In this document: positions 6,534 to 52,885 of the stretch, piece by piece | Layout: the number at the start of each line of letters is the position of its first letter | Numbering within the stretch: the stretch's first letter is position 1 | NCBI GenBank assembly: GCA_965243065.1 | Contig: CBDETO010000005.1 | Span: 987,520-1,051,519 of the forward strand | Source: Bdellovibrionales bacterium | GTDB taxonomy: Bacteria > Bdellovibrionota > Bdellovibrionia > Bdellovibrionales > UBA1609 | Length of the DNA stretch: 64,000 nucleotides | Direction: 5' to 3' | The notes under the pieces: generated by a model | The model's input: only the letters and a program-made list of their open reading frames with translations | Told to the model about the DNA's origin: nothing | The model's database searches: none | Position numbers and translations under genes: made by a program

Positions 6534-8066
6534 TTATTGCTTCTCTTCCGGTGAGGGGGTTTTATTATTTTCTTCCAACGAAGAGGGTTCCTTGTCCTGA
6601 TTTTCCATTTTTTCTTTTTTTAAATGAAAAGAGGATGCACCAGGTTGGTTTTCTTCTATTGAAGTGAGATTTTCAGTTGTCTTTTTTTCCATGTTATCTT
6701 TTGTAAGATTCATATCATTTTCTTTTAGAGAAGGAGATGGGTAGCTCATGGGTTTATTTATAGTAGGTGGGGTTTGTTTTTCTGTAGGTGGTATAGGCTC
6801 AGCAGGCGCAGATGGGGGGGGGGTAGAAGGTGTGTGTGTAGCAGCAGGCGCAGATGGGGGGGTAGAAGGTGTATGTGTAGCAGCAGGCGCAGATGGGGGG
6901 GGGGTAGGAGGTGTAGATACAGTGTAATGGGTTCTTTGTACAGGATGTGTTGGTCCTCCTGTTACAGTAGGGGAAGGAGTGATATTGGAAAAATGAAAGG
7001 GGGGAGCCGGATTTGTAGAGGTGTTTCCCGTGCTGTTTTGGCTTCTATAGGCTTCCATGTCTTTAGGTGGCCACCCTTCTACATCCATACCTAAGGAAAG
7101 TCCCATTTGTTTAATAATATCTTTAATTTCGTTAAGGGATTTTCTGCCAAAGTTTTTTGTTTTTAGCATTTCCTGTTCTGTTTTTGTGACAAGATCTCCA
7201 ATATAACGAATACGAGCATTTTTCAGGCAGTTGGCACTGCGGACAGATAGTTCTAAATCCTCCACTGGCCGGAATAAATTTTTGTTCACCTGAGGTGTGT
7301 CTTCTTTCACTGTCTTTTCTTCTGGTTCTATATCTTCATTGAAATTCATAAATACCTGAATTTGTTCTTTAAGAATTTTGTATCCCAGTGGTACCGCTTC
7401 TTTTGGAGTTAAGGATCCGTCTGTCCAAACCTGTAAGACCAAGGAATCATAGTCTGTTTTTTGACCGACACGGGCGTTAGTCACAGTGTAATTTACGCGT
7501 CGAATGGGAGAGTGAATGGAATCAATAGGAATAAATCCCAAGGGTAAATTACCTGATTGTTCAGAAGCTTCAATATAACCACGATTAAAGGTCACTATAA
7601 TTTCTGCATTAAACTCTGCGTTTTTTCCAAGAGTGGCGATAACCTGTTTGGGATTAATAACTTTAATACCACTGACCAGTTCAATATCATTAGCTGTTAC
7701 CAGACCGGGGCCTTTTTTACTAATTTTTAATCTTTTTTGATCCGCATCTTCTTGTTGAAAACGTACTTGTTTTAAGTTCAGTGTAATGTCGGTAATATCT
7801 TCTAAAACATCAGGGATGGTAGTGAACTCATGTAATACATTTTCAAATTTTACCGCGGAAACAGCAGAACCCATCATAGAACTAAGTAAGATCCGACGAA
7901 TGGCATTACCTAAAGTTAAGCCATAACCTCTCTCCAAAGGACGAATAGTAAATTTTCCATAAATGGAAGTCAGGCTGTCTTTGTCTATCTCAAAACCTTT
8001 TGGTTTTATAAGATTTTTCCAATATTGATAATAATGTGGTTTAATATCTATTTTTTCCATTTCCAT
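6534..8066 (-). CDS. rpoA: DNA-directed RNA polymerase alpha subunit with ~170-aa Pro-rich C-terminal extension
   Basis: 510 aa. N-terminal domain ([22 protein letters not shown]) and alpha-CTD ([23 protein letters not shown]) are both present. The tail contains [14 protein letters not shown] repeats. Confidence 0.95.
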
Positions 8067-32404: not shown

Positions 32405-32622
32405 AAATAAAATTAGTCACGAACATATTTTACAACATGACATTTCTACCATTACAAAGATTTTTTTTCGTTTTTCGATAAACCCCACTAAAAATCTCAT
32501 AATGATACAAAGTGCTGTAAAATAAATAGTCACTTTTCCCGAGTTCGACACAGAGCAATACATAGTGGTTTTATGCAAAAACTAAACACCTCTTTAGTAG
32601 CTCCCCATCCCATGAAAACATT

Positions 32623-32831
32623 GTCATCCCCGCGAAAGCGGGGACCTCTTATAGGTAAAGCCGGATAATATGCTATGTTATTTGTCATCCCCGCGAAAGC
32701 GGGGACCTCTTATAGGTAAAGCCGGATAATATGCTATGTTATTTGTCATCCCCGCGAAAGCGGGGACCTCTTGATCGCTTAAAGGAAGGTATTAATTTAA
32801 GAGTTGTCATCCCCGCGAAAGCGGGGACCTC
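32623..32831. repeat. 4-copy hairpin-repeat array with exact 61-nt period (CRISPR-like geometry, probably not CRISPR)
   Basis: GTCATCCCCGCGAAAGCGGGGACCTC starts at 32623, 32684, 32745 and 32806. The intervening ~33-35-nt segments 1 and 2 are identical and segment 3 is unrelated. Confidence 0.85.
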
Positions 32832-32881: not shown

Positions 32882-35764
32882 TTAATTTTTATTCTTCTCG
32901 ACTTTTTGTTGTGCCTCTTCTATATCCTTAAGCTTTATTTTTAATTGTGTGAGTTCTTTTTGTTGCGATGTAAGTGCTTCCTGCTGTGATGTAAGGATTT
33001 CTTGTTGTAAAAGAATAAGGGTGTTTAATTTCTTTATCTCCTCTTTCTCTTTGGCCCATGTCTTTTTTATTTCCTCTATTTCGTTTATAATAACTGTTAC
33101 CTTTTCTGTAAGTGTTTTTATTGCCGACGAGGTATTTTCTTTAATGGCTATTACCTCCTCTGTTACTTTTTTTAATGCTGACAAAGTGTTTTCTTTAAAA
33201 CCTTCAAATTTAATAATTAAAGCTTTTATAGCAGCCCAAAAGGTCCCGTAAATAGAAGGCATATCTGGCATAGAAGGCTGGCCTTTGTCTTTAATCTGAA
33301 GATAATGGGGCAATTCCTCGGAAATAAAACCCATACGACTTTTATTTGGGTGGTCCTCTTTGTACTCATAAGTAAATAAAGGGGTCTTTTTTATATCTTT
33401 ATAAACTCTCTCAAAGTTTTTAAATTTTTTAATGTTTTTCTTATACACCCGAGAGGAGGGAGTGCCATGACTGTGACCCGCAGGAGCGTAGCCACTATGA
33501 CCATGACCGGATGGAGAGTAAGGATGAGTATGAGCATCTAGGGCATGGTGACCATTATGATTATGACCAGGCATGGAAGGACAAGTAGAACCACCACAGC
33601 TAAATACCCCCGAGGTGAGATTAATACCCCCTTCCACCTCAAGTCCATCTGCATGCACCTTTAGTTTTTTTGCAACATCTAAAGTCCCATGAATCACAGC
33701 CCCAGGAGAAGAGGGAATGAAAGGATTGGAGGAGGGGGGGGCACTCGTATTTAACTTTCCTAAAATTAAGTTTCCGATATTCAGTTGGTTGGATCCTGTT
33801 TTGCTAATTCCCACATGGGATCCAGAATTAGGTGGCCCTACCTCACTCCCTATATATATGTTTTCATTACCTGAAGTATTATATATACCTGCTTGAAATC
33901 CCAAGAAGGTATTTTTATCTCCCGTGCAGTTCACAGACCAAGCCTGTCTTTCTGCTTCACCGCCAGGGTCAACCCAAAGATATGTAAATGGAGTGGAAGG
34001 TATGCATATCCCAGCATTACCTCCTAAAAACACATTTTGTTTTCCTGTCCCATAAAATGCCCCCGAGTGAAATCCTACAAAAGTATTTTCACCCGCTTTA
34101 TTAAAATACCCCGATCCTCCACCTACATAAAGATTATGAATAGATGTTTCATTATATTTTCCTGTTGCAGCTCCTAAGAAAGTATTCTGTGATCCTGTTA
34201 TATTCGACCTACCCGCATCCATCCCTAAAAAGGTATTCCAACGAGCTGTATTTGAGTTTTGACCCGCTCGTGCCCCTATATAGGTATTACCCACGCCAGT
34301 TGCATTAAGTCTTCCTGCCTTGTGACCTATAAAAACATTGTGAGAAGCTTCAAAAATACTACTGGTTGTGTCATCTTCTGTGGTGTATTTACCCGCTTCG
34401 TGCCCCACAAAGACATTGTTCCGCGCAGTTGTAGCACTAAAACCTGCATAACGACCTATATAGACATTTTCATCCCCTGTAGTATTAGAGTGGCCTACAG
34501 CAGCACCTATAAAGATGTTACTTTTACCGGTGGTATTAAAATAACCTGCATTACTACCCAAAAAAACATTGCTACTACCCAAAGTATTGGCATAGCCTGC
34601 TTGATAACCTACAAAAGTGTCGTTACTACCCAAAGTATTAGAATAACCCGTATGATAACCCATAAAAACATTAAATGCTCCTTTCTGATTAACAACTGTA
34701 CCTGGTATAGTATTAATCCCCGACTCAAATCCAAAGGCCGTCACCGTGCTGACAGGTATCTTTGAGGTGCCCCCACAACCTATTAAAGCTCTTCCTTTGC
34801 CCAATTCTGAACCAGGAGAAATTAAACGTTCAACACTATCAGGGTGTACATTCTGAGTTATAGAAGGCCCATCAAAATCCACCGTATAACAAGAGATATT
34901 GTCCCCACCTACGCAATTTAAAGTATCACAGGCTACGACATCCGGGTTACTCGCCACATTCTCCAACCTATAATCCAGATCACATTCCAAAAAGTAACAC
35001 CCGCTCGTATCACTGCTGGTACAATCACCCCCATCTAATGTGTTTAAATCCTTTGTCTGCTTCTTGCTGTAATACACCACAAATTTTCTATTTACTGTAG
35101 CTGTCTTAGGGTTCTGAGTTGCATCACCTGTAAGTTCTAGCTTTACAATATCCAAGTTCCCCTTAAAAGACTTCCCCTCCTCCAGCAAGGCCACACCATC
35201 TTGCTCCAACTTACTAATCGTGCCTATCCCCTTTTGACTGTTACTCCCTGTAAGTCTGCCCGCTTCCGGCTTTAAATTAGCCTTACAGTAATTATCATTT
35301 GTAAGAATGTTATTTACGGCTATTCGTAACTCCTGCTCAGAAAAAGTCCCTCTTACCACCTGAGAAGACTGCATAGATACCGTGGCTAATTGCAGGGTCC
35401 CCACAGTAATCACCGCCATTAAACCTATGACTACCAGAATCTCCAATAAGGAAAATCCACCTTTGTTGCAAAGCTGGCCCAGAGAAAACAAAGATGGCTT
35501 CCCGTTTCCGCAGTCTATCCAGGAAAACAATTTCCAAGGAAACAAGCTTGATACTGGATCAGATGGATTCCCGCTTCCGCGGGAATTGCACCTGCTCACT
35601 TTCGTAAGGACTAGCCTCGAGGGGAGCTTTGTCCCCGCTTCCACTTTCGAAAGCTTTGCGGAAAATAACCGGATGAATATACCTGAAGTTAGTTCTCTGA
35701 ATGAATGAATGAATGAATGAATGAATGAATGAATGATTTTTTCACACTTCTTACTTCCCTGCAA
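32882..35764 (-). CDS. type IV pilin-like N-terminus fused to tail-fibre-like repeats, HxH cluster, S74-type intramolecular chaperone domain and coiled coil
   Basis: NKGG|FSLLEILVVIGLMAVITVG prepilin motif at codons ~100-125. G/N/T-rich 13-16-aa repeats. GHNHNGHHALDAHTHPYSPSGHGHSGYAPAGHSHG. SSRVYKKNIKKF...LFTYEYK...RMGFISEELP. Start ambiguous: TTG 35764 (longest ORF) or TTG 35491 (GGGAAG 6 nt upstream, 12-aa leader). Confidence 0.7.
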   Translation of the reverse strand: MQGSKKCEKIIHSFIHSFIHSFRELTSGIFIRLFSAKLSKVEAGTKLPSRLVLTKVSRCNSRGSGNPSDPVSSLFPWKLFSWIDCGNGKPSLFSLGQLCNKGGFSLLEILVVIGLMAVITVGTLQLATVSMQSSQVVRGTFSEQELRIAVNNILTNDNYCKANLKPEAGRLTGSNSQKGIGTISKLEQDGVALLEEGKSFKGNLDIVKLELTGDATQNPKTATVNRKFVVYYSKKQTKDLNTLDGGDCTSSDTSGCYFLECDLDYRLENVASNPDVVACDTLNCVGGDNISCYTVDFDGPSITQNVHPDSVERLISPGSELGKGRALIGCGGTSKIPVSTVTAFGFESGINTIPGTVVNQKGAFNVFMGYHTGYSNTLGSNDTFVGYQAGYANTLGSSNVFLGSNAGYFNTTGKSNIFIGAAVGHSNTTGDENVYIGRYAGFSATTARNNVFVGHEAGKYTTEDDTTSSIFEASHNVFIGHKAGRLNATGVGNTYIGARAGQNSNTARWNTFLGMDAGRSNITGSQNTFLGAATGKYNETSIHNLYVGGGSGYFNKAGENTFVGFHSGAFYGTGKQNVFLGGNAGICIPSTPFTYLWVDPGGEAERQAWSVNCTGDKNTFLGFQAGIYNTSGNENIYIGSEVGPPNSGSHVGISKTGSNQLNIGNLILGKLNTSAPPSSNPFIPSSPGAVIHGTLDVAKKLKVHADGLEVEGGINLTSGVFSCGGSTCPSMPGHNHNGHHALDAHTHPYSPSGHGHSGYAPAGHSHGTPSSRVYKKNIKKFKNFERVYKDIKKTPLFTYEYKEDHPNKSRMGFISEELPHYLQIKDKGQPSMPDMPSIYGTFWAAIKALIIKFEGFKENTLSALKKVTEEVIAIKENTSSAIKTLTEKVTVIINEIEEIKKTWAKEKEEIKKLNTLILLQQEILTSQQEALTSQQKELTQLKIKLKDIEEAQQKVEKNKN
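35495..35655. repeat. cluster of hairpin repeat units inside the 5' leader of the pilin-fibre ORF
   Basis: GGATTCCCGCTTCCGCGGGAATTGCA (35565-35590), GTCCCCGCTTCCACTTTCGAAAGC, GGCTTCCCGTTTCCGC. Confidence 0.65.
35698..35736. repeat. tetranucleotide simple-sequence tract (TGAA)9+TGA; (ATTC)9 on the coding strand
   Basis: Counted directly. Translated in the track ORF as IHSFIHSFIHSF. Confidence 0.95.
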
Positions 35765-35953
35765 GAGTTTTTTTCTTTCCCGTATTAGAAATTATATCAG
35801 ATAAATCTTTAAAAAATCAAATTTTTTATTTTTCATGTCCCATGTAGGAAAAAATCTCAAAAAAACTCCCCCCTTACCCGGCTTATACAAGTCAGGAATC
35901 CCCATTCCCCTCTTTCATGGACTAAAATCTTGCTAGTTAAGGAACCATCTTTC

Positions 35954-36000
35954 AGTACATTGATAATTGGTCTTGACTAATTATCAATGTACTTTAAAAT
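35954..36000 (+). promoter_or_regulatory. sigma70-like promoter (TTGACT-N16-TAAAAT) embedded in a perfect 15-bp inverted repeat; putative operator
   Basis: AGTACATTGATAATT (35954-35968) and AATTATCAATGTACT (35979-35993), with TTGACT at 35973-35978 and TAAAAT at 35995-36000. The ATG of the next gene is at 36007. Confidence 0.5.
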
Positions 36001-36006
36001 AAAGCT

Positions 36007-37185
36007 ATGTTGAAACCAAGGTATTTACAATCGGCTATACAAAAGGATGCTTTAAAAGATCGTAAAATGGCTTTTATAAGTGGCCCCAGACAGGTGGGAA
36101 AAACCACTTTAGGAAAGCAACTTTTAAAAGATAAAAACAATTATTTTTCTTGGGATCAAACAGAATTTAGAAAAACATGGGTTAAATTTCCGGAAAAAAT
36201 ATTAGAAAACATTGGTATAGGTCCTATTCTTTTTGATGAAATTCATAAGGACAGAAAGTGGAAATCAAAAATTAAAGGTATTTACGATACCTATTCCGAA
36301 GAACTAGATATTTTAGTCACGGGAAGCGCAAAGTTGGATATCTACCGAAAAGGAAATGACAGCCTTCTAGGAAGATATATCCCTTATCGTTTGCATCCTT
36401 TTTCGGTTTCAGAATCTCGTACTCCACCCCATCCAGATGATATATTAAAAACATTTAAGATTTCTTATAATTGGAAAGACCTGATGGTATTGGGCGGGTA
36501 CCCCGAGCCTTTACTTTCTGGAAGAGAAAATAAAGCGCAAAGGTGGTCACGGCTCAGATTAGACAGATTAGCTTATGAAGATACCAGAGATATCAAGGTT
36601 TTATCTAACTTAAATGCGTTTAGAGTTTTATTGGATCTGATTCCTGAAAAGGTGGGATCTCTTTTTTCCTTTAATTCTTTAAAAGAAGATGTGGGTGTAG
36701 CTTATGCTACAGTGAGAGAGTGGGTTTTGTTATCTGAGTTGCTATATTATGGTTTTTTTGTCAAACCGTATTCAAAAGGTTTTAAAAGATCTATAAGAGC
36801 TGAACCTAAGTTTTACCTCTATGATATCTTACAAATTCCCAAATCCGAACATGCTAAACGATTAGAAAATTTAACAGCTCTTCATCTTATAAAAATCTGC
36901 CACTTTTGGACAGATACCGGTGCAGGACTTTTTGATTTATTTTTTGTCAGGGATAAAGAAAAAAGAGAAGTGGATTTTTTAATAACCAAAGATAAAAAAA
37001 CTTGGATGCTTGTAGAATGTAAATCACAATCAAAAAATATATCTCCCCTCTTACTTTATTACTCAAAACAACTAAAAACTCCTTTAAACTTTCAATTAGT
37101 TGATGAAAATAAGTACGACAAAAAGCACCGTATTCAAAATGTCAGAGTGATGGAGTATGAAAAGTTTTTTTCAGGCTTGATCTAA
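36007..37185 (+). CDS. AAA-type ATPase of the COG1373 / DUF4143 family
   Basis: 392 aa. Walker A GPRQVGKTTLGKQL, Walker B-like ILFDEIHK, and a C-terminal restriction-endonuclease-like REVDFLI...VECK. Confidence 0.7.
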   Translation: MLKPRYLQSAIQKDALKDRKMAFISGPRQVGKTTLGKQLLKDKNNYFSWDQTEFRKTWVKFPEKILENIGIGPILFDEIHKDRKWKSKIKGIYDTYSEELDILVTGSAKLDIYRKGNDSLLGRYIPYRLHPFSVSESRTPPHPDDILKTFKISYNWKDLMVLGGYPEPLLSGRENKAQRWSRLRLDRLAYEDTRDIKVLSNLNAFRVLLDLIPEKVGSLFSFNSLKEDVGVAYATVREWVLLSELLYYGFFVKPYSKGFKRSIRAEPKFYLYDILQIPKSEHAKRLENLTALHLIKICHFWTDTGAGLFDLFFVRDKEKREVDFLITKDKKTWMLVECKSQSKNISPLLLYYSKQLKTPLNFQLVDENKYDKKHRIQNVRVMEYEKFFSGLI

Positions 37186-47800: not shown

Positions 47801-47952
47801 TTTCCCTGTTCCCGCTAAGACAACTCCTCCTATAAAAGCCGCTGCTAAAGCCTCTATAATAGATAAACCTTTATTGCGTTTAAGAGGATTATACCGGTTC
47901 GGTTTAAGAACACGCTGAGACTTGACTTTTATCTCATTTTGAGACGAAAATG

Positions 47953-48193
47953 TGATTGGTGATTGGTGATTGGTGATTGGTGATTGGTGATTGGTGATTG
48001 GTGATTGGTGATTGGTGATTGGTGATTGGTGATTGGTGATTGGTGATTGGTGATTGGTGATTGGTGATTGGTGATTGGTGATTGGTGATTGGTGATTGGT
48101 GATTGGTGATTGGTGATTGGTGATTGGTGATTGGTGATTGGTGATTGGTGATTGGTGATTGGTGATTGGTGATTGGTGATTGGTGATTGGTGA
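47953..48193. repeat. heptanucleotide simple-sequence tract, 34 perfect copies of TGATTGG (CCAATCA on the coding strand) plus a partial copy
   Basis: Counted: 47953..48190 = 238 nt = 34 x 7. The two track ORFs 47929..48246 and 47934..48206 are just (ITNHQSP)n translations of it. Confidence 0.97.
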
Positions 48194-51727: not shown

Positions 51728-52885
51728 ATGAAAAAGGTCAGATTTTTTTGTTTTTTATCTTTATTAACTGTGTTTCCCGGTCTCTGTTATTCTGCCAAGA
51801 AAAAGTCTTCAGTTTGCAAAACAATGTTTGCAAATGAGGGGGAGAACTTTGAAGACTTGTTTCCGTTCAAGAACTTTGTTCAGCTTATGGTAGATCTTAA
51901 AATTTATTCCACCCTAGATTTGGTTAAAGCAAAAAGAGACGGGGATTTTCCTGAAGAGGTTCCTGATAAACCTCTACAGACTTATCCTGAACTAGAAGGA
52001 AAATGGAGTTTGCTATGGGATACAGTGCATGCTCTTCATTTATCTCAAAGGGAAGATGTAGCTAAGCGGAGAAAATGGACGACGAGTGAGGTTCGAGCCT
52101 TTATAAAAGAAGTCTTGAAGACAGAAAGTCGGCGTAACAGCCAAATAAATAAAGTAGGGGAGCATGTTCCAGAGAGGCAGAAAAAAATCGGGAGAAAAGC
52201 CTTGTCTAGCCACGTGCCGGCAGCCCTGATAGCTCATAATGAAAGACTGAGAAAAAACCAGGAAGAAGTGCTTTCTTTAATAGCCAAGAATCCTCAAATA
52301 AAGGTAGAGGAGTTGGCAGAGCAGATGCAAATACCAAAGAGACCCACAGAGCAGATAATTTCTAAGTTAAAAGAAGGAGGCCATCTGGTGAGAGTGGGAA
52401 GGACTAGTAAATATGGATACTGGGAGGTTTTTAAAGAAGGAGAGAAAGTGTCTGCTTCTGTTGTCAGCCTGCAAAGCGAGCGGGAGAGTAAAATGCTTTC
52501 TTTAATAGCCAAGAATCCTCAAATGAAGGTAGGAGAGTTGGCAGAGCAGATGCAATTATCAAATAGACTCACAGATGAGATAATCTCTAAGTTGAAAGAA
52601 GGAGGCCATCTGGTGAGAGTGGGAGGGAGCAGTAAATATGGATACTGGGAGGTTTTTAAAGAAGGAGAGAAAGTGTCTGCTTCTGTTGTTAGCCTGCAAA
52701 GCGAGCGGGAGAGTAAAATGCTTTCTTTAATAGCCAAGAATCCTCAAATGAAGGTAGGGGAGTTGGCAGAGAAGATGCAAATATCAGAGAGATCCGCAAG
52801 GGGGATAATCTCTAAGTTGAAAAAAGAAGGCCGGCTGGTGAGAGTGGGAGGGAGCAGTAAATATGGATACTGGGAGGTACTTTAG
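51728..52885 (+). CDS. signal-peptide protein with three tandem winged-helix (HTH) DNA-binding-like modules
   Basis: MKKVRFFCFLSLLTVFPGLCYSA signal-like N-terminus. Three copies of LSLIAKNPQMKVGELAEQMQ.S.R....IISKLKEGGHLVRVGGSSKYGYWEV. Confidence 0.6.
   Translation: MKKVRFFCFLSLLTVFPGLCYSAKKKSSVCKTMFANEGENFEDLFPFKNFVQLMVDLKIYSTLDLVKAKRDGDFPEEVPDKPLQTYPELEGKWSLLWDTVHALHLSQREDVAKRRKWTTSEVRAFIKEVLKTESRRNSQINKVGEHVPERQKKIGRKALSSHVPAALIAHNERLRKNQEEVLSLIAKNPQIKVEELAEQMQIPKRPTEQIISKLKEGGHLVRVGRTSKYGYWEVFKEGEKVSASVVSLQSERESKMLSLIAKNPQMKVGELAEQMQLSNRLTDEIISKLKEGGHLVRVGGSSKYGYWEVFKEGEKVSASVVSLQSERESKMLSLIAKNPQMKVGELAEKMQISERSARGIISKLKKEGRLVRVGGSSKYGYWEVL
52268..52885 (+). repeat. 225-bp tandem repeat, 2.7 copies, within the CDS
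   Basis: CTTTCTTTAATAGCCAAGAATCCTCAAAT starts at 52271, 52496 and 52721, an exact 225-nt spacing. Confidence 0.9.

Follow-up and report, generated by a model that had tools for sequence, protein, structure and literature searches.

Is the tetranucleotide tract that precedes a pilin-like fibre gene in an uncultured member of the Bdellovibrionales a contingency switch, and, if it is, does it act by shifting the reading frame or through its position in untranslated sequence? The tract lies in a 64,000-nucleotide (nt) stretch (C5:987520-1051519, called the window throughout) of a 2.17-Mb genome with 37% GC in five contigs, and the gene downstream of it, 2.6 kb long, combines a prepilin motif with a putative Peptidase_S74 (S74) domain. 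An earlier note on this DNA had described the tract as a second simple-sequence contingency locus and had argued for switching of a pilin-like protein family, a proposal that is supported by the contrasts in copy number between homologous loci and by the clustering of simple sequence repeats (SSRs) at the 5' ends of prepilin genes. The focal tract is most likely one of about 20 slipped-strand on/off switches in the genome. Of the two mechanisms that had been offered, the sequences favour frame shifting, and the tract probably serves as a slipped-strand translational ON/OFF frame switch inside a long cleavable prepilin leader. The other option, a "more conventional" start at TTG 35491 that would leave the tract in a 5' untranslated region (UTR), is disfavoured by the open linkers and by the single open reading frame (ORF) at a homologous locus of a sister species, both described below.

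The tract and the fibre gene

As the earlier note had counted, the + strand carries nine copies of TGAA followed by TGA; both direct reading of the sequence and Tandem Repeats Finder (TRF; 9.8 copies, 100% matches, score 78) give a perfect period-4 array of 9.75 units (coordinates of this and the other features are in Table 1). The array is a perfect repeat whose 4-nt unit is not a multiple of three, as in contingency loci, and a 39-nt perfect run of period 4 is not expected by chance in 2.2 Mb. The gene strand, on which the tract is spelled TC(ATTC)9A, is without stops, and its complement reads TGA, so that the orientation of the tract keeps the gene strand open. The window contains no second TGAA-type tract; genome-wide there are two tracts of at least six ATTC units, the focal one included, and no such tract was found in 150 other genomes of the order, in a scan of 70 genera.

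It is extremely improbable that the tract is an artefact of assembly or consensus in a repetitive region. Nothing specific points that way, although a duplicated 5' cassette, such as the one described below, can confuse assemblers. The tract stands in a 2.08-Mb contig, where the sequence on either side of it is unique, tracts of this kind are found in other species, and the same junctions and tract are present, beside an identical neighbouring gene, in an independent short-read assembly (L079, GCA_028824845.1), which argues that the tract is real.

The longest ORF of the locus runs from TTG 35764 to 32882 and comprises 960 codons counted from that TTG. It contains the tract, which is read as (IHSF)n, and it stays open through a linker of 239 nt down to the prepilin motif GG/FSLLEILVV (the slash marks the cleavage site), both as the earlier note had stated. 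The motif spans codons 100-123, with the G-1 codon at 35458-35456, and has the features of a class III signal: G at -1, a hydrophobic residue at +1, E at +5 and a hydrophobic helix of about 20 amino acids (aa), GG/FSLLEILVVIGLMAVITVG. The Pfam N_methyl match, at 19.1 bits, is just below the cut-off of 21.2; the Peptidase_S74 match (20 bits) is also short of its cut-off, 22, and the S-x4-K catalytic motif appears as SSRVYK. Two Peptidase_A24 genes, one of them in the region C5:1181083-1181415, would supply the prepilin peptidase, and both score above their cut-off in the genome. In the mature fibre the pilin-like N-domain is followed by about 300 aa of NxFxGxxAGxxNTxG repeats, a His-rich stretch, the S74 domain and a coiled-coil tail; comparison with PDB sequences gave no match. 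Directly downstream of the fibre stop codon, at window positions 32621-32831, there is a 61-nt unit repeated 3.5 times (89% matches) with a CCCCGCGAAAGCGGGG hairpin.

Copy number at homologous loci

Evidence that tracts of this kind change in length comes from homologous loci with conserved flanks. A paralogue at C5:882833-886246 has 81% protein identity to the focal gene and has in common with it a 5' cassette of about 500 nt, which extends from the middle of the inverted repeat at 35954-35993 into the coding region and is about 99% identical outside the tract. The differences outside the tract amount to about seven point changes, clustered just 3' of the tract and beside the cleavage-site codons. 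Within this cassette the tract has 9.75 copies at the focal gene versus 23.5 at the paralogue, whose 5' junction is also longer by four T. Two homologous loci of the sister species G004, which share the N-domain and have a related upstream flank (cTTGACAGGAAAAAAGAAAACATGAGA[CATT]n), differ in the same way, with 14.75 and 27.75 copies. A tract of the same unit also occurs in another gene context: in G009 (C1:1578771-1578836) an (ATTC)16.5, out of frame in the assembly, follows AGGAGG-ATG (MKHDII) and precedes the Sec signal peptide of an unrelated, secreted protein.

In L079 the identical neighbouring gene and about 270 nt up to the tract are joined to at least 13.5 copies with a junction of the paralogue type (AAAAAATTTT). 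The contig in question (JAPPCD010000167.1) ends inside the tract (positions 1-60), which is reached from the unique AAA_14 side. This junction reflects either gene conversion between cassettes in another population or a short-read mis-join, the latter being possible because the roughly 270 nt between the neighbour gene and the tract are identical in both cassettes; we have therefore discounted the 13.5 or more copies as proof of allelic variation. The neighbouring SSF transporter gene was used to find relatives, which are uncultured 'Bdellovibrionales bacterium' metagenome-assembled genomes, several of them complete chromosomes of 1.3-2.3 Mb; their isolate or sample names (RHO3_bin, IP30b_bin, ROBB21, LUOR22) look like those of marine-sponge studies. 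Since the relatives that share this transporter (L001-L010) have no fibre gene at that place, a positional comparison of orthologous tracts failed, and the 26-nt left flank had no exact match among the metagenome contigs scanned.

The focal tract is the shortest among the long SSRs of the genome, which would suit a different history, namely that it is a contracted remnant and that the gene is locked, either stably ON (from TTG 35764 or TTG 35491) or silently OFF, while the 23.5-copy paralogue is the active switch. The rate fit for Haemophilus influenzae, u = 2e-5*L - 2e-4 (PMC3546556), is consistent with such a history. Applied here by analogy, it places about 10 units near zero, at the floor of mutability, and 23.5 units at about 3e-4. 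Models also predict shortening under sustained selection for one state (PMC3546556). We nevertheless regard a locked remnant as rather improbable. The tract is still perfect and without interruptions, and L079 links the same neighbour gene to its longer array, though possibly through the mis-join with the paralogue. In other species, tetranucleotide tracts of similar size do differ from strain to strain.

Open linkers and probable translation through the tract

If the tract is translated, the sequence between it and the cleavage site should be open in the frame of the gene, and this is what we found. The focal linker has no stops in the gene frame and four and one in the other frames, in which reading ends 6 and 116 nt after the tract; the probability of its being open, P(open), estimated from dinucleotide shuffles, is 0.041. 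Linkers at comparable loci of this and related genomes are likewise stop-free in the gene frame (Table 1), and Fisher's combined P over eight loci is 2e-6. The eight are the focal locus, G004 L063, the G004 poly-C locus, G003, the pentamer locus, the 82-nt heptamer locus and the short poly-C loci of G006 and G010, whose linkers have P(open) of 0.39 and 0.37; G004 L055 and C5:1366653 were omitted because their linkers share sequence with loci already counted. Between the focal gene and its paralogue the linker has three substitutions, all non-synonymous, and from these alignments it seems that openness has been kept and the peptide sequence has not.

The homologous loci of other genomes point in the same direction. 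At 137 kb in G004 the arrangement ATG-(CATT)14.75-469 nt-AG/FGLVES forms a single ORF of 549 aa, and the copy at 424 kb is out of frame and meets a stop after 74 aa. In G007 an ATG-(CAAC)34 that ends 32 nt before the motif is in frame, as is AAGGAG-GTG-polyC13 in G010. The other SSR families of the focal genome have a strong ribosome-binding site (RBS) and ATG 10-37 nt before the repeat, and beyond the repeat they have no start in frame. In G014 the orthologue (70% identity) carries no SSR; it has a 15-aa leader and AGAGGGGA-ATG, an ATG that the focal gene has lost. Two database homologues, P0003 and P0004, are also without a long SSR, and P0004 has a pre-sequence of 77 aa with no repeat in it.

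Part of the linker consists of elements resembling repetitive extragenic palindromic (REP) sequences. The core of one (35559-35600, palindrome ttcccgcg[g/a]aa[g/a]cgggaat) recurs at more than 15 further sites dispersed in the genome, and inside the leader-coding linkers the palindrome is stop-free, being read as FPRKRES, IPAKAGI or HSRESGN according to frame.

These observations have to be weighed against the reading in which the tract is non-coding. Translation would then start at TTG 35491, and the tract, about 210 nt upstream in a long 5' UTR, would tune the level, stability or translation of the mRNA, in the way of the AGAT tract of Moraxella uspA2, or the geometry of a regulator site, in the way of the TAAA tract of meningococcal nadA. 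That TTG is indeed in frame, 11 codons before the G-1 codon, and has GGGAAG 6 nt upstream, just as the earlier note had reported; its Shine-Dalgarno (SD) energy equals that of TTG 35764, and REP-like elements are typical of untranslated regions. One SSR-linked gene, C5:17510, also has stops between the SSR and an ATG of its own, which is 7 codons ahead of the motif. Against this, the linker is stop-free in the gene frame at the focal and all comparable loci, at the homologous G004 locus an ATG before the tract opens a single ORF that includes tract, linker and motif, and the ancestral RBS and ATG beside the cleavage site have been lost. In-frame TTG or GTG codons are to be expected by chance in 79 codons. 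The tract is moreover outside the -35 and -10 elements of the best promoter match, which lies wholly upstream of it, so that it is not predicted to vary a promoter spacer in the manner of the hif (TA)n repeat or the opc/porA homopolymers. On balance we think a non-coding tract unlikely.

Promoter, start codons and the present state of the locus

The promoter candidate matches the consensus at 10 of 12 positions and has a TG before the -10 element (TTGATT-18-TGaTATAAT); it is identical in the paralogous cassette. The consensus predicts a transcription start at about 35783-35785, and thus a 5' UTR of about 40 nt for the upstream start versus about 290 nt for TTG 35491. The leader would be 12 aa long from TTG 35491 and about 96-102 aa from the starts upstream of the tract; class III leaders usually have about 6-30 aa and are basic.

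Two start candidates precede the tract. TTG 35764 has an SD energy of -4.3 kcal/mol, about the genome median, and its equivalent in G004 runs into a stop. GTG 35745 is preceded by AGGGAAG, which has an energy of -5.7 kcal/mol, stronger than that of 64% of long genes, and resembles the AGGGAG site of the pentamer-SSR family. The N-terminus from this GTG would read M-K-K-S, versus M-R-H-S or M-K-H-S in G004, G007 and G009. Judging from the alignment, the start that corresponds to the in-frame ATG of G004 is GTG 35745 and not TTG 35764, and at the present copy number this GTG is out of frame with the gene. Its frame (frame 2) has 287 nt to the G-1 codon (2 mod 3) and meets a stop 6 nt after the tract, giving a peptide of 18 aa; a gain of one unit or a loss of two would bring it into frame. 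We also considered SD hybridisation energy as a means of choosing between the starts, and found it undiscriminating (-4.3, -5.7 and -4.3 kcal/mol for TTG 35764, GTG 35745 and TTG 35491). Because TTG 35764 reads in the gene frame and GTG 35745 would need one more unit to do so, the focal locus could at present be weakly ON or could be OFF. Neither upstream start of the paralogue is in frame; its GTG would be if the tract had one unit fewer.

An invertible-promoter switch at the inverted repeat 35954-35993, inside which the duplicated cassette begins, was considered and rejected: the repeat is a hairpin with a 10-nt loop, is part of the divergent AAA_14 promoter and is found in other species too. 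An Rfam scan of 35300-36100 gave nothing near threshold.

Table 1. Features of the focal locus in window coordinates, and stop-free linkers of comparable loci
Feature	Position or length	Strand	Remarks
Inverted repeat, 15-nt arms	35954..35993	.	promoter region of divergent AAA_14 gene
Sigma-70-like promoter candidate, TTGATT-18 nt-TATAAT with TG extension	35791..35820	-	consensus match only
TTG start candidate	35762..35764	-	in frame with prepilin motif; 102-codon pre-sequence; would be ON
Shine-Dalgarno-like AGGGAAG	35754..35760	-	8 nt before GTG 35745
GTG start candidate	35743..35745	-	aligns with ATG of G004 loci; currently out of frame (OFF)
Tract TC(ATTC)9A	35698..35736	-	perfect array; gene strand stop-free in all frames
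Linker, 239 nt, partly REP-like hairpin elements	35459..35697	-	stop-free in gene frame only
TTG alternative "conventional" start	35489..35491	-	12-aa leader MFSLGQLCNKGG; SD -4.3 kcal/mol
Prepilin (class III signal) cleavage motif G/FSLLEIL and start of hydrophobic helix	35435..35458	-	F+1, E+5
Mature fibre protein, 857 aa	32882..35455	-	pilin-like N-domain, repeats, S74, coiled-coil tail
G004 L055 linker	562 nt		stop-free; P(open) <0.0004
G004 L063 linker	469 nt		stop-free; P(open) 0.002
G004 poly-C linker	693 nt		stop-free; P(open) <0.0004
G003 linker	318 nt		stop-free; P(open) 0.011
Pentamer-family linker	122 nt		stop-free; P(open) 0.086
Heptamer-family linker	82 nt		stop-free; P(open) 0.14
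Heptamer-family C5:1366653 linker	191 nt		stop-free; P(open) 0.013

Proposed mechanism

In the mechanism that we propose, transcription would begin at about 35783, from the promoter upstream of the tract, and translation within a few codons of the tract's 5' end, from TTG 35764, from GTG 35745 and its AGGGAAG site, or from both. The ribosome would read the tract as (IHSF)n and then pass through the 239-nt linker, whose sequence would be unconstrained, to GG/FSLLE. The prepilin peptidase would remove the whole pre-sequence of about 100 aa on the cytoplasmic face of the membrane. Gain or loss of one 4-nt unit would shift the frame, and expression might be graded, as in lic1 of H. influenzae, since the two starts are in different frames. 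Because the whole pre-sequence would be cut off, changes in tract length would alter the reading frame only and never the mature fibre. The leader of a class III signal peptide remains on the cytoplasmic side, and cleavage takes place N-terminal to the hydrophobic helix; the length of the leader should therefore not be limited by translocation, which would make it a tolerant site for a repeat and filler sequence. The start that is used, the cleavage of so long a leader and a useful switching rate at about 10 copies are steps that we infer.

Several points weigh against a frame switch at this locus. The start is ambiguous, since TTG 35764, which is in frame, has an SD of median strength and a G004 equivalent that is not preserved as a start, and the homologous GTG is out of frame; a start at TTG 35491, with its 12-aa leader, is possible and would make expression independent of frame. 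The linker holds REP-type elements, which are usually extragenic, and at the focal locus alone the open-linker statistic is modest (P=0.04). Processing is not known for prepilin leaders as long as about 100 aa. At 9.75 units, finally, and by the same analogy with H. influenzae, the focal copy may switch rarely, being slow or semi-locked, and with its roughly 10 copies it may be the slowest switch of the set.

Comparison with known systems

The closest precedents for a frame switch in a leader are in Neisseria, where opa has (CTCTT)n in the region coding for the signal peptide and pilC has a poly-G in its signal-peptide region. As in these genes, a non-triplet repeat would lie a few codons after the start, within the segment cut away from the precursor during export, and the gene belongs to a multigene family of surface adhesins. 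Since the repeat is in the removed part, members of such a family can switch independently without changing the mature protein. Unlike opa and pilC, the focal locus uses a class III (prepilin) leader and not a Sec signal peptide; repeats of the focal type are followed by an unconstrained, REP-invaded linker of 80-230 codons; the units are tetra-, penta- or heptanucleotides or poly-C according to paralogue and species; and the host is an uncultured member of the Bdellovibrionales and not a human pathogen.

In H. influenzae, lic1 contains (CAAT)n with start codons in two frames, and mod contains (AGTC)n. The focal locus resembles these in having a perfect tetranucleotide tract just 3' of candidate initiation codons, which are in two frames, and its rate is likewise expected to scale with copy number (PMC3546556). 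It differs in that its switching is predicted, in that its tract is close to the lower limit of the calibration, and in that the gene encodes a secreted fibre whose leader can be cleaved.

Moraxella catarrhalis uspA2 has (AGAT)n in its 5' UTR, and Neisseria meningitidis nadA has (TAAA)n upstream of its promoter. Both, like the focal gene, have a tetranucleotide tract 5' of a fibre-adhesin gene (theirs encode trimeric adhesins), and they are the model for a tract in the 5' UTR. Their tracts, however, are outside any ORF, whereas the focal sequence is open in the gene frame from the tract through to the cleavage site.

A resemblance nearer to hand is to the S74 subgroup of the mosaic adhesive trimer (MAT) fibres of Bdellovibrio bacteriovorus, in which a Sec signal peptide is followed by a conserved beta-rich domain (PMC10769870). 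The focal protein and this group are alike in being long, multi-copy fibre adhesins of the Bdellovibrionota that end in a self-cleaving S74 chaperone, a candidate one in the focal protein, with the S-x4-K motif. Unlike MAT fibres, the focal protein has a prepilin-type N-terminus and an SSR tract; the paper on MAT fibres makes no mention of pilin motifs or phase variation (PMC10769870).

Simple sequence repeats in the genome and genus

A census of perfect repeats in the genome (G000) gave about 24 long SSRs with units of 4, 5 and 7 nt in up to 40 copies, together with one poly-C19. Long SSRs are strongly concentrated at the 5' ends of prepilin-motif genes, both in this genome and across the genus: 12 of the 31 ORFs with a strict prepilin motif have one within 400 nt upstream, and there is a 13th such gene. 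These 12-13 genes form three families, in which GFSLLEI goes with ATTC, GFSIVEL with pentamers and GLSIIEA with heptamers. An ATG within 14 codons of the cleavage site is missing in 11 of the 12, while ordinary pilins of about 190 aa are without an SSR, and their ATG precedes the cleavage glycine by 5-13 codons. The earlier note had also pointed to a tract at the 5' end of the second pilin-like gene in the window, and we confirm it as (GTGATTG)34.6 at 47952-48193. Loss of MutS as the source of this abundance was rejected, MutS being intact in 15 of 15 genomes of the genus (MutL was not checked); because it is present in all of them, the SSRs are not a simple by-product of its loss.

That second tract (C5:1035471) is one of five heptamer SSRs, with those at C5:204841, 580318, 904763 and 381253, that have a strong RBS and ATG 10-17 nt upstream. 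The five differ in copy number and have the same phase, all being out of frame, with the ATG frame stopping 20 nt after the repeat. Four of them have a common upstream flank; their whole-unit counts of 37, 13, 28 and 34 are all 1 mod 3, and a TAG lies directly before the repeat in the gene frame. One possibility for this bias to a single OFF phase is a bias towards expansion from ON.

SSRs also stand before genes of other kinds. At C5:118729-118897, (ACTCC)33.8 follows AGGGAGG...ATG upstream of an ORF of 906 aa, and at C5:323773-323840, (ATCACCA)9.7 follows AAAGGAG-ATG and leads into an ORF of 984 aa with a Sec-like signal peptide, so SSR switches are not limited to prepilin-type genes. Four near-identical elements of the form TTGACA...AAGGA-N10-ATG-(ACAT)28-41 are found at C5:444849, 1209722, 1464411 and 1925854; each is followed by about 220 codons that are open in several frames and largely REP-like, with no recognisable protein or prepilin motif. 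Two further repeats in the window are of other types. A 39-42-nt tandem repeat at 6800-6915 (2.8 copies) has two copies with G10 runs (C5:994333 and 994414), a possible hypermutable site, and a 225-nt tandem repeat at 52269-52878 (2.7 copies, 91% matches, TRF score 1038) is apparently coding.

The database record of the paralogue (P0002) begins within the pilin helix, at an internal Met (MAVITVG...). Evidently SSR-led genes that lack a conventional start are mishandled by automatic gene calling, and a switch placed in the leader would explain truncations such as this one.

A broader proposal, which we consider about equally likely to hold or to fail, is that the genus, with its small genomes and apparent association with sponges, has a large phasome of about 20 loci per genome, with the switches located in unconstrained and exceptionally long prepilin leaders of 60-240 aa that have been invaded in frame by REP or tandem repeats, so that the leader is a disposable and portable cassette. 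Such a cassette would contain a promoter, a start, an SSR and a junk linker, and would be copyable between adhesin genes.

Significance

For a handful of pathogens adapted to their hosts, SSR contingency loci are textbook knowledge, and a full-text literature search, whose single match to all terms was a review on the coevolution of phages and bacteria, retrieved no paper describing SSR phase variation in the Bdellovibrionota. The departures from the opa, pilC and Haemophilus precedents are the class III leader, the very long linker of repetitive filler, the variety of repeat units among paralogues and the host lineage. If the frame-switch reading is true, the switch would be separated from the mature product more cleanly than in Opa. 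If the proposal of a genus-wide phasome is also true, prepilin peptidases would process leaders several-fold longer than any described. The frame-switch reading, if true, would also open two questions to testing: what the upper limit of length is for a class III leader that can be processed, and whether repetitive elements can be domesticated as coding filler. A frame switch at these genes would mean stochastic variation of adhesive fibres, whether they recognise prey or the host, in an uncultured and host-associated bacterium related to predatory ones.

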